DNA of 33,264 nt, taken from the UHGV virus genome UHGV-0106174; one strand, given 5' to 3'. Both the position numbers and the translations under genes were made by a program. Source of the DNA: a virus. The first letter of the stretch is position 1. The number at the start of each line of letters is the position of its first letter. Shown here piece by piece: positions 385-33,264 of the stretch. Below the pieces are notes generated by a model. The model was not told where the DNA came from and did not search any database. It saw nothing but the letters and a program-made list of their open reading frames with translations.

Positions 385-2211
<1,827 letters not shown>

Positions 2212-15817: not shown

Positions 15818-17726
15818 TTACGCCTTGATAGAAAGTTGTACTACTGCTTCTGGATGAGTCTGTACCACATCTAGGTAGTGATAATTTCTAATGCACACGC
15901 CTAAACTAGAACGATATGTCGTATCATCGTAATCTACAGAAGATCCTACCCAATTTGCGATAGTTACAAAGCTAAAATCACCCATTAGGATAGTATCATC
16001 AGCTACCATAGTGCTGACGTGAAGTGGCATTTCATCTAGCAACCATTGAGTATCAGCAAAACGCATACCTTCAGCTAGTGCAACACCAGCAACATTCGAG
16101 AGGAAAGGAGTCTGACGCAATTTCGCATACATGGTCGGTGAAACGATAGCGATACAATCACGGGATTTAACGTTAGCAGTTAGTAGTTTTGAAAATGCTG
16201 CTTCGATATCGGAATCTGCAATAACACCAGAAGCTGCGGTTTCTACTTTAGTAGCTTGTGCTTCAACAACATCAACTACTGCTTTTTCTAGAGAAACAGC
16301 TACGTTTTCTAGTAGAATATCGGTGATGTAACGTTCGATATTAGGACTAGATAGGATTAGACTACGGGTTAGTGGAATAGATCCGGGCAAATAATCTAGG
16401 ACGCATCACGATCTGGTCCATCGAAACTACAGATTCTTCAATCGCCTGACCTTCTTCATAGAATTTGAAGGATGCTTTAGAATCGATACCAGTTAGACGT
16501 GGAATAGTAAATTCACGGTTATTCATACCAGAATAAACTTTAACACCCATACGACCTAGGATTGAATCTGGAAGTAGTGGTTGGATAAAATCATCTGCAT
16601 AGTTAGTTTGAATTGCACCTGCTGCGGTAACAGTAGTGGTATTTGCACGAGCTTGTGCTAGTTCACCAGCTTGTAGGGTAAAACCACGTTGACCTTGTTC
16701 TAGATTTTCTAGAGCGGATTTATCACCTTTAATTGCTTTAGCTAGTGCTTCGATAGTACGGACTTGTTGAGTCATTTTGTCTTCCTTAATATTAAGTTTA
16801 TTATGTTTTTGTGTCTCGATTTCACGTTTAAAATCTTCGACGCTTACGTTATTATTTATTGCTTTAGTACTGTCAATATTAAAAACTTTAGCAATACTTT
16901 CAATTTCACGAATACGGGATTGATTCAATTCTTCAGCTTTAGCATCTTCAATTGCTTTCAATTCTGCATTAATGTTATTTAGTTCTTTTTCAACTTCCAT
17001 TTTACGACGAGCTTTATCAAGTGAGCGTTTAGCTTCTTCTAGTTCGCGTTCTTCTGGTAGTTCTTCTTTTTCTTCATCTTCTTTAGATTCAGATTCAATT
17101 TCACGCACTTCTGTTTCTTCAACTTCAACCGCTTTTTCTTCGGTTTCTACTGCTTCAACTTCTTCGCGTTCAACTTTATTTTCTTCGTCCATGACAATTT
17201 CCTTAAGTTGTTCACTATTTTTATTTATGCTTCGACCAACACCTACTTTATTGTCGGCAGGACAACTAACCATACTTAATTCATATGGTTCGATCTTAGT
17301 TACCATTAGATTATTACCTTCAAAATAATAATCACGAATGTTATAACCGAAAGATACTTTAGTTAGTACGCCTTCTTTTACTTGTTGATACTTCTGATCT
17401 GCAAATCCAGTAGCACTAAAACGGACGCTTGCACGTCCTACGCGGTCTGAATCAATTCGAGCATTCTCGACTACACCGATTAACCAATCCATATTGTGAT
17501 TATATAGGAGTGGTGCACCTGTATTTAGTCGAGTAAGGTCTACGCTATCAGGAGTAGTAACAAGAATTTCATTGTAGATTTGTCCGTTGATTTCACGTTC
17601 TACGGGTTGCTCTGACATAAAGGCAATTTCTACTACGCGTGAATCATCATCAATAGAATTATTAATACTTTGAATATTAATTTCACGCGTCTGTTTCATC
17701 GCTTCCAGTTTTATTTGATTGCTCAT
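15818..17726 (-). CDS. Prohead protease - scaffold - major capsid protein fusion (HK97-like), one CGGN recoding site
   Basis: Segments 16362..17726 and 15818..16390. N-terminal protease-like region, a long acidic E/K-rich linker (scaffold-like low complexity), then a capsid-like C-terminal domain. Joined at CGG 16383-16385: ...MRPRLFA-G-SIPLTRSLILSSPNIERY... Confidence 0.65.
16382..16385 (-). other. CGGA recoding site (capsid gene)
   Basis: In-frame CGG; downstream ORF is +1. Confidence 0.55.
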
Positions 17727-17788
17727 CTATATTTACTTCCTTGTTTTGTTGTTTTTCCTTTTCAACCTGTAATAATACAACGGCCGGG

Positions 17789-19687
<1,899 letters not shown>

Positions 19688-19697
19688 ATATATTTCC

Positions 19698-21668
19698 TTA
19701 ACGTTTGAAATAGTTCTTACCAGTACTCTTAGTTTGTACAAAACCAAACTTCTTACGTGCATGCACTGGTTGTTCTATATATTTATCTTCATCTATATTT
19801 ACTTCTGAAGTATCTATATCTTTTTTATCTTCTATCTTTTTGCGTTGATTTGCATCATATATACGTAGTTCGGCAAATGGATTATTACCTAATGTACTTA
19901 AACGCCACTCAATTGCTACTAAAGCATACGCAAGACAATCTAACATTTCGTTACGGTCTAGATTGCTCTTACTCTTTTTCTCCCATACATAGCGACCACC
20001 TTTGAATACTCGTTTCTCACTGGTCAACTGAATGAAATAATCGTCGGGTAGATTACCACTGAAATAGATATTAGTACCGAATGATCCGGCTTCATCATGT
20101 ATTGCCTGTTGTACTAACTTCATAATTGTATTTTTACTTTCACAACTATTAAGTATGATTAGTTCTTTACCACCAGCTTTACTTTTCTTGAATAACTCCT
20201 GTGTACCATTACCTTTAATTGGTCTTAGTAGTTTCTCGCCATATGCATTGTACTTATTACAGATACGATAGATTGTATGTGTAGCGTTACCGTTACCTGA
20301 GTCTATGAAGTTACCAAAATTACGTAATGGCTTACCTGATACAGTCTTGAATGGATACTTTAGATAACGTGCCAATTCTTCATATGCTGGTGATTCTACT
20401 TTAGTAGTATCTACGGCACTGAATATACGATGATCTAATACATAAACCTTCTTCTTATTGTCAGTAATACCTAATGTAGTAGTCTCGATCCTATCTAATT
20501 GTTGATCGCTGCCTGTGAAAATTCCGGATAACATCATCGGGGATATTTTTAATATCAAAATCAAAATCTCTTAGGTTCTCTAAAATAGTTAAATCGATTT
20601 GTTTATTTGCTTCATCTTCATATGGTAAACCGTAATGATGTATTATAAAAAGTTTGAAGGTCAAAGTTTGCAAAGCTATCACTAAAATCTTGTACAATCT
20701 TTTCGATAGTAGTTAGTGGACTGTAAAGACGTGATATATGGAAGCCTGCATAGTCTGTTACTTCGGGACGTGTCGCAATCCATCGCCCATTAGCTACGGC
20801 AGTATGTCGTTGTGCTTCGGTGAATGGTTTATCACACTTAGGACAATGCAGTTTTGCACCCTTTGATACGGCAATCTTCTTACCGTTCTTAGGATCTACA
20901 GTCCAGGTGAATCGAACGTTAGCCCATACAATTTCATGTTCATGTTTACAGTGTGGACACGGTACAAAATACTTACGCTGATCACTCTTAGACCATTCAA
21001 CCATTACGGGATCTGTTGGATGTACTGGCGTTGATGCACTCATAATCAGACTATCGGCAAACGATGCACCGACGCTGATTAGCCAGTGCAATCGGATCGC
21101 CCTCATCAGTTTCTACTGCTCCCGATATCTCATCGAGGAATAGATACTTTGTAGTGACACTACGTAGCGTAGCTGGTGCACCCAACGAGGCAAAGTAAAT
21201 CATAGTACCATCTTTCATCTCGATCTGGTTCTGGTCGTTCACGGCGTTCTTATCGGTCTTGCGTGTCACTAAATTATCTAGTACTGAACACTGTTTGATA
21301 CCTTGTTCAAATACACCCGTTTTATATTTCTTCTTCATCTCACCAGTGATTGAAGCATGTAACATATTCGATGGGTTATTATGCATCAGATAGTAAGATG
21401 CATATGTCAGTATTGAAGTCTTGAGGATCTGAGCACTAGAAACAAATACCGTTTTACGGATACTTGGATTAACAATTATATCGAGGGGATCGCGTTGGAA
21501 GGGAAATAAGCGTACGGGACTTCCATTCATTGGCCCCGACACGAATTTAATATTCTCTTCGGTCCATTCACTCGGAAGGATCTTGCGAGGCGGAATTATC
21601 GCCTGATTCGCCTGATTGAATATCTTCGTTAGTTTCGTTGTTAAATCGTTCTTCATATTTGAAATCAC
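19698..21668 (-). CDS. Terminase large subunit (lambda gpA-like), three CGGN recoding sites
   Basis: Segments 21051..21668 (ATPase-like N-terminus, LFLDEIS Walker-B-like), 20618..21106 (CPHC...CPKC zinc motif as in gpA), 20491..20697 and 19698..20564 (nuclease-like C-terminus, GSDQQLDRIE). Each successive segment is +1 shifted at an in-frame CGG (21069, 20630, 20524). True start near 21668 is uncertain because of a 100-nt overlap with TerS. Confidence 0.8.
20523..20526 (-). other. CGGA recoding site (TerL)
   Basis: ..PDDVI CGG A; +1 frame continues GIFTGSDQQLDRIE... Confidence 0.55.
20629..20632 (-). other. CGGT recoding site (TerL)
   Basis: ..FYNTSL CGG T; +1 frame continues GLPYEDEANKQIDL (compare lambda NTTLGETWEAK). 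Confidence 0.55.
21068..21071 (-). other. CGGT recoding site (TerL)
   Basis: ..ALANQR CGG T; +1 frame continues GASFADSLIMSASTPVHP... Confidence 0.55.
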
Positions 21669-22089
21669 CTAGTTCTAATAATTTATCATCTATATATTCT
21701 TGTAGTTTGTTTTTAATAGCCATGCCATCGTCGCCAACCTTTGATAGTTCCATATATGCCTGTACTGGTAGAGTACGGAATGATTGACGTATACGTGAAC
21801 AATATGCAGCCAGTTCATCAGCCACTTCATTTACATAAACTACTTCACCAATGGTCAGTTTAGTTTCAATTTCTTGTTGGTCGGCACGGGCTTTAGTGAG
21901 TCGGATTTCTTCGCGTAGTTTTTCACTTTTCAGTGCTGGGTCGCTCTTACGCAGTGGTGTGATTTTATTCTCTACTACCCACTTAAAAACATCGGCATCT
22001 GGTGCGGATAGGTCTAATCCTTCCGTTTGCCAACGACTAATAACAGACATGTCATATCCATATATCAGTACTAAATCTTTTAACATCAT
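21568..22089 (-). CDS. Terminase small subunit (lambda Nu1-like)
   Basis: N-terminal LKDLVLIYGYDMSVISRWQTEGL resembles the Nu1 winged-HTH (LADIFGASIRTIQNWQEQGMPV, recalled from memory); first gene of the minus-strand late operon. Confidence 0.6.
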   Translation of the reverse strand: MMLKDLVLIYGYDMSVISRWQTEGLDLSAPDADVFKWVVENKITPLRKSDPALKSEKLREEIRLTKARADQQEIETKLTIGEVVYVNEVADELAAYCSRIRQSFRTLPVQAYMELSKVGDDGMAIKNKLQEYIDDKLLELGDFKYEERFNNETNEDIQSGESGDNSASQDPSE

Positions 22090-22200
22090 GATAGTTTTTA
22101 CCTTTTAATTGTTTGTTAAACTTTGATTATTTTTTATATAAAAAAAAGAGATCGCGGCGGAAACTCGTATTTATTTAGTCTTCCTAAAGGAACCTATAGA

Positions 22201-22226
22201 TTCAAAGAATATGACTGTGGTATATT
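22201..22226 (+). promoter_or_regulatory. Candidate promoter for the plus-strand SLATT/nucleotidyltransferase operon
   Basis: TTCAAA ... TGgTATATT (extended -10) about 30 nt upstream of the ATG at 22254; AAGAAGG SD precedes the start. Spacing to the -35-like hexamer is short, so only the extended -10 is convincing. Confidence 0.25.
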
Positions 22227-22253
22227 TAATGCAAACAACAAAGAAGGTTTAGC

Positions 22254-22781
22254 ATGAACAATAATCTTATCCAGACTATTATCCGTGAATGCTATAGAAT
22301 CGAAGAAGATGCATTATTTTCTTCAAAATCACATTATAATGTCTCTGATAGATGGGATAAATTGAATATGTGGTTTGGAGTGCCTTTAGCTATACTAACG
22401 GCATTAAGTGGAGTTGCTGCGATAAAAAGCTCTACCAACGCAGTAATTTTAATTTCTATAGTTTCCACAACTCTAACTGCTTTGAATACCTCATTAAATC
22501 CTAGCAAACGTGCGGCTCTTCATAAATCATCCGCCAATGAATATAATAAGTTAAAAAATGAAGTTAGAATTTTTAGAGAACTATTAATTTCTAATTATGA
22601 TTTCACTGATGATGATACTAATATTGATCAAGTATTAGTTGAAAAACTCACTATATATTCTGATCGACGCAATCAGCTCAATGCAAGCTCTCCAAATATT
22701 CCGCGATGGGCTTACAAAAAAACGCAACATGACGTTAATCAAGGCTTTACTAATTATAATATTGACAAGGAGAAATCATGA
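22254..22781 (+). CDS. Two-transmembrane-helix protein, SLATT-like candidate effector
   Basis: 175 aa; soluble N-terminal segment, two hydrophobic helices (FGVPLAILTALSGVAAI and AVILISIVSTTLTALNTSL) separated by a short loop, then a ~80-aa polar tail. Architecture matches SLATT-type membrane effectors that pair with SMODS nucleotidyltransferases. Stop overlaps the next start (ATGA). Confidence 0.45.
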   Translation: MNNNLIQTIIRECYRIEEDALFSSKSHYNVSDRWDKLNMWFGVPLAILTALSGVAAIKSSTNAVILISIVSTTLTALNTSLNPSKRAALHKSSANEYNKLKNEVRIFRELLISNYDFTDDDTNIDQVLVEKLTIYSDRRNQLNASSPNIPRWAYKKTQHDVNQGFTNYNIDKEKS

Positions 22782-23554
22782 CTGTCAGTACATATTTAGA
22801 ATCAATCAAAAATAAAGCATATCAAAAAGATATTACAATAACTAATTCAATCAACACGATAAAAAGACGGCTTGACTATTTCTTCTCAAGTGAAATAAAA
22901 GAACATTTTGTTTTTGGCTCATATTCAAGAAATACGATGTTACCAAGAAGTTATGATCGTTTTTCTGATGTTGATTATATGATTGTATTTAAAAATGTAA
23001 TACATCAGCCACAAACTTATCTAAACAAATTAAAAAAGTTTGTAAACTTTTATTATAGCACATCAGAAATCAAACAAAGTCATCCTACAATTCAGTTAAA
23101 TTTAAACCATATTACTTTTGAACTTGTCCCCGCTTCACATAGTATTTTTTATGGTTATCAAATCCCTTCAAAAGATGACTTATTAGGACGTTGGATGCAA
23201 ACAGATCCTTTAGACTTTAACATGCAATTAACCAACTGCAATAAAAACAACAAATCATTGATTAAACCTCTTATTAGAATCATGAAATATTGGAATGCTA
23301 ACTCTGGTTACGTATTTGAATCATATCAATTAGAAAAGAAAATTGTTTCATTTAATTATTTCTGGTGTTCAACACTTAAAGAATATTTTTACTCTGCTGT
23401 AGAGCAACTTTCAGCACCATATGAATTTGCTTACTGGAAAAAGCTAAAGATACAAAAACTTAAAGATTCCGTAAAGCTAGCAAAATATTACGAAACGATA
23501 GACTGTCCTTTCTCTGCTGAAAAAGAAATAAAAAGTATCTTACCAGAGATATAA
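22778..23554 (+). CDS. Nucleotidyltransferase (pol-beta superfamily, SMODS/cGAS-DncV-like minimal fold)
   Basis: 258 aa; motif FVFGSYSRNT...(x)...SDVDYMIVF is the hG[GS]...DxD nucleotidyltransferase signature, with a downstream hEh (FELVP) candidate third acidic residue. Strong AAGGAG SD. Contains an in-frame CGG at 22868-22870 translated as Arg (IKRRLDYFF) with no frame break. Confidence 0.6.
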   Translation: MTVSTYLESIKNKAYQKDITITNSINTIKRRLDYFFSSEIKEHFVFGSYSRNTMLPRSYDRFSDVDYMIVFKNVIHQPQTYLNKLKKFVNFYYSTSEIKQSHPTIQLNLNHITFELVPASHSIFYGYQIPSKDDLLGRWMQTDPLDFNMQLTNCNKNNKSLIKPLIRIMKYWNANSGYVFESYQLEKKIVSFNYFWCSTLKEYFYSAVEQLSAPYEFAYWKKLKIQKLKDSVKLAKYYETIDCPFSAEKEIKSILPEI

Positions 23555-23571
23555 CCTTCTAATTAATTATT

Positions 23572-23638
23572 ATCGATTGTTTGCAATAAGTGAAGCTCAT
23601 CATTCACATATATACAAACAATCGATTTTTATTATTTT
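23572..23638 (+). terminator. Rho-independent terminator after the nucleotidyltransferase gene
   Basis: Perfect 12-bp inverted repeat ATCGATTGTTTG ... CAAACAATCGAT (23572-23583 and 23615-23626) followed by TTTTTATTATTTT. Confidence 0.5.
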
Positions 23639-23746
23639 GGTATTGATTATAAAATTAACAATACGAACAAGTCCAACTAGCCAACCGCCAACTCACTTGA
23701 TTTATTAAAATTAACATTAATTGCACTCTCTCATCTTTTATTGTGA

Positions 23747-24475
23747 TTAGCTCTTTTTAATTAGTTCTCTTAAATCTTCTATTGAACGTACATCCATACC
23801 AATATGTATCATTACATGACAATTTGCACATAATGGGATAAGATCCTTTACCGGATCAACTTTATATCGTTTAGCAATCTTATGTAAAGGTTTTATATGG
23901 TGAACTTGAATATAGTTTTTGCCTAACTTTCCATATGTTTTTTCAAAATTAAAACCACACACCTGACATGTATAACCATGAGCTTCTATACAAGCTTGTC
24001 TTGCTTTAGGATCACGTTCATAGTAGGTTATTCGCCTTTCTTGTTGTTCACCTTCATAATACTCCTTATCCACATTAGGCGTATATGAATAGTATTCTTC
24101 ATCAGTAGCGTACCAATCACCATTGATTTTCGTTAGATATTTACGCACTATCTTTTTTTCAAAATCTTTGATTTTAGCTGCACCGCTTGATGTTTTTCTT
24201 TCGTCTCTTACTTGGCAAAACGTATATAAGTTATAACCTTCATACAAAATTTTGTTTATATGCTCAATCGATTGACTATATCCGCTTTTTTTGCGTCCTT
24301 GTTCGTTTTCCTTCCACTTATGTGATAAAATCAAGACGCTTTTACCATCAATAGATTTGAGATCTTCCCATGCACCAAATATAATTCTTTTGTTCGTTTC
24401 ATCAATAAACGACCAACTCCAACTATAATTTTTACATGTTGCACCTAATGAACGTAGAAACTCAGTTCTGGACAT
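23747..24475 (-). CDS. HNH endonuclease, McrA-like C-terminal domain with an uncharacterised N-terminal domain
   Basis: C-terminus ERDPKARQACIEAHGYTCQVCG...IQVHHIKPL...LIPLCANCHVMIH matches the HNH/McrA motif layout (RDP, CxxC, HH, CxNCH). Probable start is the ATG at 24473-24475 (MSRTEF...) with a GAGGA SD; the track ORF begins at an upstream GTG. Confidence 0.65.
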   Translation of the reverse strand: MSRTEFLRSLGATCKNYSWSWSFIDETNKRIIFGAWEDLKSIDGKSVLILSHKWKENEQGRKKSGYSQSIEHINKILYEGYNLYTFCQVRDERKTSSGAAKIKDFEKKIVRKYLTKINGDWYATDEEYYSYTPNVDKEYYEGEQQERRITYYERDPKARQACIEAHGYTCQVCGFNFEKTYGKLGKNYIQVHHIKPLHKIAKRYKVDPVKDLIPLCANCHVMIHIGMDVRSIEDLRELIKKS

Positions 24476-24762: not shown

Positions 24763-25131
24763 ATGAAAAAATTAATCATTGCCTCTATCTTAGCTGCTTC
24801 TTGCAATGCTAATGCAGCATCACGTGAGCTTCTTAATATGGTAGATCCGATTGAAAATTATTTAATCATAAATGGTAAAGCCTCTGGTAAGGAGGCACAT
24901 TATACCGCTTACCGTTTAGCAGATGAATTAGCCTCGGTTTTCGATAAGAATATGGTCGAAGTATTAAACGAAGGAATAAATTGTAGTACAATTGTACAAA
25001 AAACAAGCCCCCTCCCAGTACATATGTTTCCTGTTGATGACAATAATAAAGTAGCTAAAATTAATCGTAAAAAGATTGAAAAAGCAATTATCCACTATGT
25101 AGAAACTAGATGTCAGGAATTATCAGAGTAA
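24763..25131 (+). CDS. Secreted protein or lipoprotein (possible superinfection-exclusion function)
   Basis: N-terminal signal peptide MKKLIIASILAASCNANAAS with a Cys in lipobox-like context; accessory-region location. Function is speculation. Confidence 0.4.
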   Translation: MKKLIIASILAASCNANAASRELLNMVDPIENYLIINGKASGKEAHYTAYRLADELASVFDKNMVEVLNEGINCSTIVQKTSPLPVHMFPVDDNNKVAKINRKKIEKAIIHYVETRCQELSE

Positions 25132-25202
25132 AATGTCACATTCATAAATTACATTTATTACATATGGCTACGATTATAACAAATATCATTCACAGGTACA
25201 TA

Positions 25203-25409
25203 ATGAAATCATTACTATTAAAATACGAAAAAGTGCTAATTGATATTTCAGCAGTTGCTTCGGTAGCTATCATCGGTACTTATTATGAGTCAGATCACCC
25301 TTCTGCCTTACATGAAGTTTTTTCTGTAATATCAGTTGGCGTTTTGTTCTACGCTGCAAAACGTTATATATCACCAGTTATTTCAAAATATACCCCATGG
25401 AAAAAATAA
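25203..25409 (+). CDS. Small membrane protein (two predicted TM helices)
   Basis: Internal ATG at 25203 (MKSLLLKYEKV...); hydrophobic segments ISAVASVAIIGTYY and VFSVISVGVLFYAA. The upstream part of the track ORF (from 25110) overlaps the previous gene. Confidence 0.35.
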   Translation: MKSLLLKYEKVLIDISAVASVAIIGTYYESDHPSALHEVFSVISVGVLFYAAKRYISPVISKYTPWKK

Positions 25410-30649: not shown

Positions 30650-32486
<1,837 letters not shown>

Positions 32487-32545
32487 TTACTTACCTCCAT
32501 TAACTGTGGTGTACATCATATCATAACTGTTCATTGCTGCTGATG
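32487..32545. other. Prophage-host junction (attachment site region for the serine integrase)
   Basis: AT-rich phage DNA including the integrase SD ends here and GC-rich host coding sequence begins; the host reading frame is open from 32504. The exact crossover dinucleotide cannot be identified without the other junction. Confidence 0.5.
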
Positions 32546-33214
32546 GGGCCGCAGTGGCGTTCGCGTCTCGATCGTGAAGCCAGCCTGCTGGGTCACAGTG
32601 GTTGCCGTATTGGCGGTAACGATCTGGACATCGCACTGGCGTTTAAAAACCTGATGCCGTTACTGGGCATGGGTGGCGAAACCGAAAAAGGCATCGCCCT
32701 GCCGATTCTGCCGTGGTGGAATGCGGTTGCCATCAACGACGTACCTGCGCAGAGTGATTTCTACAGTAGTGCCAACGGTCGTCTGCTTAACGATCTGGTA
32801 CGCGATGCCCGCGAACCGGAAAAAGTGGCCCTGCTACAGAAAGTCTGGCGTCAGCGTTTAAGCTATCGCCTGGTGCGTAGCGCAGAAGAGAGCAAAATTG
32901 CTCTTTCCAGCACTGCGGAAACCCGCGCCTCACTGCCGTTTATCAGCGATGAACTGGCTACGCTGATTAGCCAGCAAGGGCTGGAAAGCGCCCTCAGCCA
33001 GCCACTGGCGCGGATTCTGGAACAGGTGCAACTGGCCCTGGATAACGCCCAGGAAAAACCGGACGTTATCTACCTGACCGGCGGTAGCGCCCGTTCTCCG
33101 CTGATTAAAAAAGCGCTGGCAGAACAGTTGCCGGGCATTCCGATTGCAGGCGGCGATGACTTTGGCTCCGTCACCGCCGGGCTGGCTCGCTGGGCGGAAG
33201 TGGTATTTCGTTAA
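32528..33214 (+). CDS. yegD: Hsp70-family protein YegD-like, C-terminal portion only (gene interrupted by the prophage)
   Basis: GC-rich ORF ending ...YLTGGSARSPLIKKALAEQLPGIPIAGGDDFGSVTAGLARWAEVVFR*, the conserved C-terminal actin-like ATPase subdomain of DnaK/YegD-type proteins. No plausible N-terminal domain is present upstream. Symbol assigned from memory of the E. coli protein. Confidence 0.7.
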   Translation, partial: CSLLLMGPQWRSRLDREASLLGHSGCRIGGNDLDIALAFKNLMPLLGMGGETEKGIALPILPWWNAVAINDVPAQSDFYSSANGRLLNDLVRDAREPEKVALLQKVWRQRLSYRLVRSAEESKIALSSTAETRASLPFISDELATLISQQGLESALSQPLARILEQVQLALDNAQEKPDVIYLTGGSARSPLIKKALAEQLPGIPIAGGDDFGSVTAGLARWAEVVFR

Positions 33215-33264
33215 AAGAAAATGGCTCAGCAGCGGCTTAAATCTGCCTGCGCCTGGGCCAGTTT

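Follow-up and report, generated by a model that had tools for sequence, protein, structure and literature searches.

The window analysed here is a stretch of 33,264 nucleotides of DNA, the UHGV virus genome UHGV-0106174. Its subject is a pair of plus-strand genes at positions 22254 to 23554, which encode a small membrane protein of 175 residues (the effector) and a nucleotidyltransferase of 258 residues (the cyclase). It is very likely that the pair forms a conventional type I cyclic-oligonucleotide-based antiphage signalling system (CBASS), in which a cGAS/DncV-like nucleotidyltransferase (CD-NTase) and a SLATT_4 effector act together to abort infection. As judged from sequence, all of the testable features of a type I CBASS and of SLATT_4 membership are present, save for a marginal Pfam SLATT_4 score. 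Family membership, the active site, the pairing of the genes and the selection on them come from the analyses presented here, while every functional step is drawn from related systems. An initial annotation of this DNA had proposed a CBASS-like module of a SLATT protein and a nucleotidyltransferase. This is borne out by the SMODS, PADLOC and NCBIfam profiles, and by the conservation of both the pairing and the gene order. The genes and their junction are as follows.

22254..22781, plus strand: effector gene, 175 aa (open reading frame (ORF) listing and direct reading).
22778..23554, plus strand: cyclase gene, 258 aa (ORF listing and direct reading).
22767..22781, plus strand: predicted translational-coupling junction, with a Shine-Dalgarno sequence AAGGAG (22767-22772) inside the effector gene and then ATGA (22778-22781) (direct reading).

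The cyclase scores 107.4 bits (E-value 1.2e-30) with the Pfam SMODS family (PF18144), for which the cut-off is 26.5. With PDLC00769, the PADLOC model for CBASS cyclases, the E-value is 1e-109, residues 1-257 aligning with profile positions 1-260 of 261, and there is also a match to PHROG 23526. In an alignment of 120 cyclase homologs, F46, G47, S48, R51, T53, D64 and D66 are invariant, so that the GS...DxD signature picked out in the initial annotation (G47-S48, D64, D66) is upheld across the family. The third catalytic position, residue 115, is Glu in the window cyclase and in 102 of the 120 homologs, and Asp in 18 of them; it aligns with the catalytic Asp of BcCdnD. The catalytic signature of the pol-beta enzymes (GS, [DE]x[DE] and a third acidic residue) is thus intact in the alignment.

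The AlphaFold model of the cyclase has a pLDDT of 92.1 and a pTM of 0.87. The initial annotation had looked to structure prediction for a comparison with known enzymes, and when the model was compared with the PDB using Foldseek, the top 50 matches were all CD-NTases (CdnD, CdnC, CdnB, CdnE, CdnG and DncV). The best match is PaCdnD (E-value 5.7e-14), and the query-normalised TM-score ranges from 0.47 to 0.78 over these 50 matches. The cyclase is predicted from the model to have the CD-NTase fold, with a nucleotidyltransferase core and a helical C-lobe.

Among 1.84 billion representative proteins, homologs of the cyclase number 645 at E <= 0.001 and 157 at the stricter E <= 1e-30. Nearly all of them fall in the range of 255-290 aa, and the "minimal" size of the window cyclase is therefore the norm for its family. 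The initial annotation described it as smaller than typical; this holds by comparison with the solved CD-NTases, at about 270-350 aa, but not within its own family, where about 260 aa is normal. The window cyclase carries no AGS-C or other appended sensor domain, while a minority of its close relatives, at about 50% identity, bear a C-terminal AGS-C. Among solved proteins, B. cereus CdnD is the closest in sequence (E-value 2e-7 by phmmer; PMC13424991). The phmmer search with the cyclase detected solved CdnD weakly, and no solved CdnB or CdnG. The mixture of close relatives that have AGS-C and others that lack it agrees with what has been reported for clades F and G. From this and the phmmer pattern, we infer that the cyclase belongs to CD-NTase clade F.

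The effector matches the PADLOC 2TM effector model PDLC00712 over its full length (E-value 6.8e-67, 222.8 bits; TM, transmembrane), and the NCBIfam SLATT_4 model (NF033632) with 124.3 bits, against a cut-off of 55, and an E-value of 3.7e-36. The PADLOC model for SLATT proteins associated with reverse transcriptases, PDLC03811, also matches it, with an E-value of 2.4e-12. Hydropathy analysis places the hydrophobic segments at about residues 39-57 (TM1) and 63-81 (TM2), and both are covered by helices in the AlphaFold model, at 3-57 and 61-81, in agreement with the two closely spaced TM helices of the initial annotation. TM2 holds nine Ser/Thr/Asn residues. The model, which is of the monomer, is all-helical with a pLDDT of 91.1, and outside the membrane the N- and C-terminal parts are predicted to form helices. 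Conserved charged or polar residues are found in these soluble parts: R15, E17, E18, D19, K25, H27, R105 and R108. The model shows no specific likeness to any solved structure, and no solved relative was found. By its profile matches, the 175-aa protein is classed as a SLATT_4 two-TM CBASS effector. The profile searches thus assign the cyclase to SMODS/CD-NTase and the effector to SLATT_4; the assignment to a non-signalling family that the initial annotation had entertained did not occur.

The PADLOC E-values for the two proteins rule out that these are chance ORFs. The ORF listing and direct reading also confirm the layout given in the initial annotation, with two plus-strand genes and an ATGA overlap in which the ATG of the cyclase gene (22778-22780) runs into the TGA of the effector gene (22779-22781). 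A Shine-Dalgarno-like sequence, AAGAAGG, is found at 22241-22247, upstream of the effector start, and the choice of start codon is supported by the alignment of the effector N-terminus with its homologs. In homologous loci, the effector and cyclase genes have either a stop/start overlap or a gap of no more than 5 nt.

The order of effector then cyclase recurs in Pseudomonas, in Providencia, in a second E. coli allele and in a bivalve gill symbiont, as well as in 10 of 19 IMG/VR viral contigs. In Pseudomonas the pair sits in a defence island between an MmeI-type restriction-modification gene and GmrSD, and in the gill symbiont the cyclase of the pair is fused to AGS-C. Firmicute-type relatives of the cyclase are paired not with SLATT but with a 4TM CBASS effector (PADLOC PDLC00726), placed upstream or downstream of the cyclase depending on the locus. 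Cyclase relatives with this 4TM partner, at about 44-48% identity, were seen in a Cellulosilyticaceae genome assembly and in IMG/VR contigs. As read from these sequences, the change between SLATT and 4TM partners is the effector swapping typical of CBASS. PADLOC gave no match in six neighbouring proteins (HNH, small ORFs and primase-helicase), and since no neighbouring gene matches a defence model, the locus is taken to be a two-gene type I CBASS. There are no Cap2/Cap3, HORMA/TRIP13 or type IV accessory genes at the locus.

One of two alleles of the pair is present in 108 of 5426 complete E. coli genomes. The second allele, found in 88 of the complete genomes, is 77% identical in nucleotide sequence and 78-80% identical in protein sequence. 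Between the two alleles, the ratio of nonsynonymous to synonymous substitution (dN/dS) for the cyclase is 0.079, while for the SLATT effector dN is 0.099 and dS is saturated. These values indicate that the pair is under strong purifying selection. An identical cyclase is found on 218 contigs, and an identical effector on 528. By comparison, phage records hold little: megablast of the 3.1-kb region gave no match in them, and tblastn found one cyclase homolog only, in a 113-kb Clostridioides phage (44% identity), and none with the SLATT protein. In RefSeq the two proteins are named "SMODS domain-containing nucleotidyltransferase" and "SLATT domain-containing protein".

The window is a segment of the E. 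coli chromosome, and the pair is carried by a prophage-like element, about 31 kb long and with about 35% GC, that is inserted in yegD. The GC content is 30% for the CBASS pair, about 35% for the element (window 1-32500) and 57.6% for the host flank (32534-33264). For a prophage of E. coli the GC content is very low, which points to recent acquisition from a low-GC donor. The element contains genes for a lambda-type terminase, a portal, an HK97-type protease and capsid, tail proteins, a primase-helicase and a large serine integrase. The pair lies where the initial annotation placed it, with the small terminase subunit gene on the left, ending at 22089, and genes for an HNH endonuclease, the primase-helicase and the serine integrase on the right.

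The CBASS pair is intact while the late genes of the prophage are broken. At 15818-21668 on the minus strand, the large terminase is spread over three ORFs, the portal over two and the protease-capsid over two, and the splits fall in the middle of Pfam domains. In the terminase, separate ORFs hold positions 10-158 and 160-247 of the GpA_ATPase profile, and likewise positions 2-45 and 80-285 of GpA_nuclease; in the portal, the division is between profile positions 14-145 and 153-350. The same terminase and portal splits are found in independent E. coli genomes, in some of which the protease-capsid gene is intact. Because the terminase, portal and capsid genes are split within domains, the prophage is judged to be defective. 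An example of the second allele (NZ_CP082103.1 4874435-4891511) takes this further. There the pair shares an island with IS3, a GTPase and a gene of the inovirus Gp2 family, and the phage is represented only by its gene for the small terminase subunit and by part of the large terminase. In this example, the defence pair has outlived the prophage.

The packaging module is common to 20 of the 5426 complete E. coli genomes, and only 10 of these have the CBASS pair. In the ten genomes without it, the packaging and structural module is 96-98% identical to that of the window, and the DNA to the right of 22167 is wholly different. Homology with this CBASS-less variant ends at 22167, 87 nt ahead of the start of the effector gene. 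The pair therefore belongs to an exchangeable module on the right-hand side of a mosaic prophage. The boundary at 22167/22168 comes after a GC-rich motif, TCGCGGCGGAAACTCG, which is also conserved upstream of the second allele.

Two elements flank the coding sequences.

22168..22253, plus strand: 5' leader of the module, beginning at the mosaic boundary and containing a -10-like element and a Shine-Dalgarno sequence.
23572..23639, plus strand: terminator-like element, with a 12-bp perfect stem (23572-23583 / 23615-23626) and an inner hairpin, followed by TTTTTATTATTTT.

The initial annotation gave the pair a promoter and a terminator of its own, and each of these proposals stands in part. A consensus scan found no promoter site upstream of the pair, and over the whole region promoter-like sites are fewer than in shuffled sequence. 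There is nevertheless an extended -10-like sequence, TGgTATATT, at 22218-22226, a match to consensus only, which is conserved in the other E. coli allele (77% identical) as TGtTATACT and may act as the promoter. The scan likewise gave no terminator directly after the cyclase stop codon. However, RNA folding of 23572-23626 gives a hairpin of -22.2 kcal/mol with z = -4.98, none of 200 shuffled sequences being equally stable, and the same hairpin was recovered as an inverted repeat by a repeat search, with a T-run after it. The scan missed it because of its long loop and AT-rich stem, and it is a putative terminator. No Rfam match was found, either in the whole window at the gathering threshold or in 22000-23800 at E <= 1, so that no RNA element of a known kind takes part.

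On the basis of these observations, and by analogy with related systems, we hypothesise that the locus functions in the following way. The two genes would be co-transcribed and translationally coupled. Infection by another phage would switch on the CD-NTase; published work on type I CBASS suggests activating cues that are late and linked to virion assembly. The cyclase would then make a cyclic di- or oligonucleotide, using a pol-beta-type site formed by G47-S48, D64, D66 and E115. The helical, cytoplasmic portion of the SLATT_4 effector, which holds the eight conserved residues named above, would read the signal. The effector is then expected to oligomerise, with the polar face of TM2 lining a pore or channel in the inner membrane, and the cell would cease to support phage growth, which is abortive infection. 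Several published results are of interest here. EcCdnF04-SLATT6 restricts phages of five families by at least 10,000-fold (10.1101/2023.05.21.541620), and antiphage activity has been confirmed for a lactococcal operon of a SLATT (PF18186) protein and a CD-NTase with AGS-C (PMC11381338). SLATT effectors are thought to oligomerise into assemblies that breach the membrane (10.64898/2025.12.03.692087), and Cap14 shows that a TM effector of CBASS can be a nucleotide-gated channel (PMC10402079).

A number of observations weigh against assignment of the locus as a conventional type I CBASS. The third catalytic acid of the cyclase is Glu and not the usual Asp, and the protein is only 9-18% identical to any solved CD-NTase among its Foldseek matches. 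It scores 93.4 bits against the NCBIfam model CBASS_cyclase_b, for which the equivalog cut-off is 200. If the cyclase does belong to clade F, it should be added that no in vitro product had been seen for this clade as of 2023 (10.1101/2023.05.21.541620). For the effector, the Pfam SLATT_4 (PF18186) score of 24.6 bits is slightly below the gathering cut-off of 27, although as a matter of profile evidence this is outweighed by the NCBIfam and PADLOC models. Finally, the promoter and terminator are assigned at the level of sequence only.

The pair could also be read in other ways. In one of these, signalling is inverted, as in a guard-type system resembling Panoptes: the cyclase would be constitutively active, its product would keep SLATT_4 closed by way of a new, all-helical nucleotide-binding site, and depletion of the product by a phage sponge or nuclease would release the effector, so that the counter-defences of phages against CBASS become the trigger. 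It would account for a cyclase without an appended sensor domain in a group where relatives at about 50% identity bear AGS-C, and some CD-NTases are indeed constitutively active in vitro (EcCdnE01, 10.1101/2023.05.21.541620; CdnB, PMC10402079). An effector-first order with translational coupling would keep both proteins co-produced, and Panoptes itself is a precedent for a minimal cyclase with a 2TM effector (PMC12657218, PMC12657230). The Panoptes cyclase is however an mCpol of the Cas10-palm type and its effector carries SAVED, neither of which is found at this locus, and those type I CBASS operons with SLATT effectors that have been tested are described as conventional CBASS. Nothing at this locus speaks for the inverse logic, and we regard inverted signalling as improbable. 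We give the same low probability to the idea that the pair is an inactive relic, which has lost its defence function and is decaying along with its defective prophage. The frameshifted terminase, portal and protease-capsid genes of the carrier would suit such a history, as would the failure to find a strong consensus promoter. But both ORFs are intact, with invariant catalytic residues, the cyclase dN/dS is as low as 0.079, and identical copies of the proteins are spread over 218 and 528 contigs. In addition, the second allele has persisted in the example examined although very little of the phage remains, a pattern that fits selection for the pair.

It is less probable still that the pair benefits the phage in a way unrelated to defence, either through holin-like lysis or its timing, or through superinfection exclusion, in which the membrane protein would act alone and the nucleotidyltransferase would modify a different target. 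The carrier is a prophage, the pair adjoins the packaging genes, and a small 2TM protein could in principle be a holin. Against this, the sole lysozyme gene is 20 kb away, at 1764..2171, the matches of the membrane protein to SLATT and CBASS effector profiles span all of it, and the same pair occurs in defence islands outside phages, such as that of Pseudomonas with MmeI-type restriction-modification and GmrSD genes. Least probable of all, to the point of being negligible, is a minimal nucleotidyltransferase (MNT) of a toxin-antitoxin pair, or an antibiotic nucleotidyltransferase. The cyclase does have a weak match to Pfam NTP_transf_2 (23.3 bits against a cut-off of 21), which comes from the core shared by the pol-beta superfamily. 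Its SMODS score is 107.4 bits, its partner is a SLATT protein with no HEPN, and its C-terminal helical lobe and whole-model fold matches are those of a CD-NTase. An MNT or antibiotic nucleotidyltransferase is thus refuted by Pfam, PADLOC and the fold search. A conventional type I CBASS is the reading that we retain.

The closest known systems are the two-gene E. coli type I CBASS operons EcCdnF04-SLATT6 and EcCdnF05-SLATT6, which likewise consist of a CD-NTase and a SLATT two-TM effector, and for which broad and strong phage restriction has been shown experimentally (10.1101/2023.05.21.541620). Compared by description, their cyclases carry a C-terminal Ig-like AGS-C domain and their effector is SLATT6, whereas here there is no AGS-C and the effector is SLATT_4. 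The lactococcal genes pUCCL631_167/168 also have a SLATT PF18186 effector (SLATT_4, 190 aa), whose locus tag precedes that of the CD-NTase (PMC11381338). These differ, again by description, in having a 408-aa cyclase with AGS-C, in being plasmid-borne and in belonging to Firmicutes (PMC11381338).

Other systems share only part of this design. Cap14, a Saf-2TM-SAVED chloride channel (PMC10402079), and Cap15 are also small TM effectors of type I CBASS, activated by nucleotides and located in the inner membrane. The polar TM2 face of the SLATT_4 effector likewise fits a channel or pore. Cap14 and Cap15 however have a nucleotide-binding domain (SAVED and a beta-barrel, respectively), while SLATT_4 is all-helical and has no such domain. 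ThsH of type VII Thoeris (10.64898/2025.12.03.692087) and the SLATT protein of DRT10 (10.64898/2026.04.29.721553) belong to the same effector superfamily, but their signals are generated by a TIR protein (cADPR) and a reverse transcriptase (cDNA) rather than by a CD-NTase. Panoptes (mCpol OptS with the 2TM-SAVED protein OptE) is similar in combining a minimal cyclase and a 2TM effector in two genes (PMC12657218, PMC12657230), and differs in its Cas10-palm cyclase, its SAVED-bearing effector and its inhibitory signalling.

The initial annotation suggested that this compact version might be uncharacterised, and this was not sustained. SLATT4 and SLATT6 are both listed as CBASS effector classes (PMC12480259). 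Given this listing of SLATT4, the PADLOC models for both proteins and the correct RefSeq names, the locus is already known, both as a kind and as a catalogued family; it is only the biochemistry of the subfamily that is uncharacterised. In the searchable literature, no biochemical or structural study was found of a SLATT_4 CBASS effector or of the short cyclase subfamily. The locus has little significance as a discovery, as defence-annotation tools already label the pair as CBASS. It is of practical use as a native representative, from E. coli, of the CBASS branch that is least understood, that of sensor-less short CD-NTases and SLATT_4 effectors. A small pair from E. coli makes a convenient model for the signal made by the cyclase and for how SLATT reads a signal. 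It also shows clearly how selection keeps a defence module in place as the prophage that carries it decays.

It is worth adding that the prophage encodes an HK97-family prohead protease (window 16362-17726). In a type I CBASS screen, this class of protein was reported as a key determinant of CBASS activation and escape. One may speculate that the resident CBASS is triggered by the assembly proteins of its own prophage, and perhaps that this is tied to the prophage defect.

The possibility that the convergent HNH gene encodes a second, Cap5-like effector was rejected, since it has no SAVED domain or PADLOC match and is beside the small terminase subunit gene. The initial annotation also held that the pair contains the only plus-strand genes in the region. 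The pair is indeed on the plus strand, but RefSeq has two further plus-strand genes, 1.2 kb downstream of it.

24763..25131 and a shorter frame within 25110..25409 (window ORFs), plus strand: two small genes (RefSeq annotation).

They are located between the HNH gene and the early region, and gave no Pfam or PADLOC match. One encodes a protein of 122 aa with a signal-peptide-like N-terminus, MKKLIIASILAASCNANA, and the other a small hydrophobic protein that matches PHROG 30003. They may be further accessory cargo.

The integration site also shows some variation. In the window (30921-33264) and in strain PSJ-42, the element is in yegD, beside a gene for a 521-aa serine recombinase. Other genomes have instead a recombinase of 581 aa, beside a radical-SAM/TRAM gene. 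The two contexts suggest either two integrase variants or two attachment sites.

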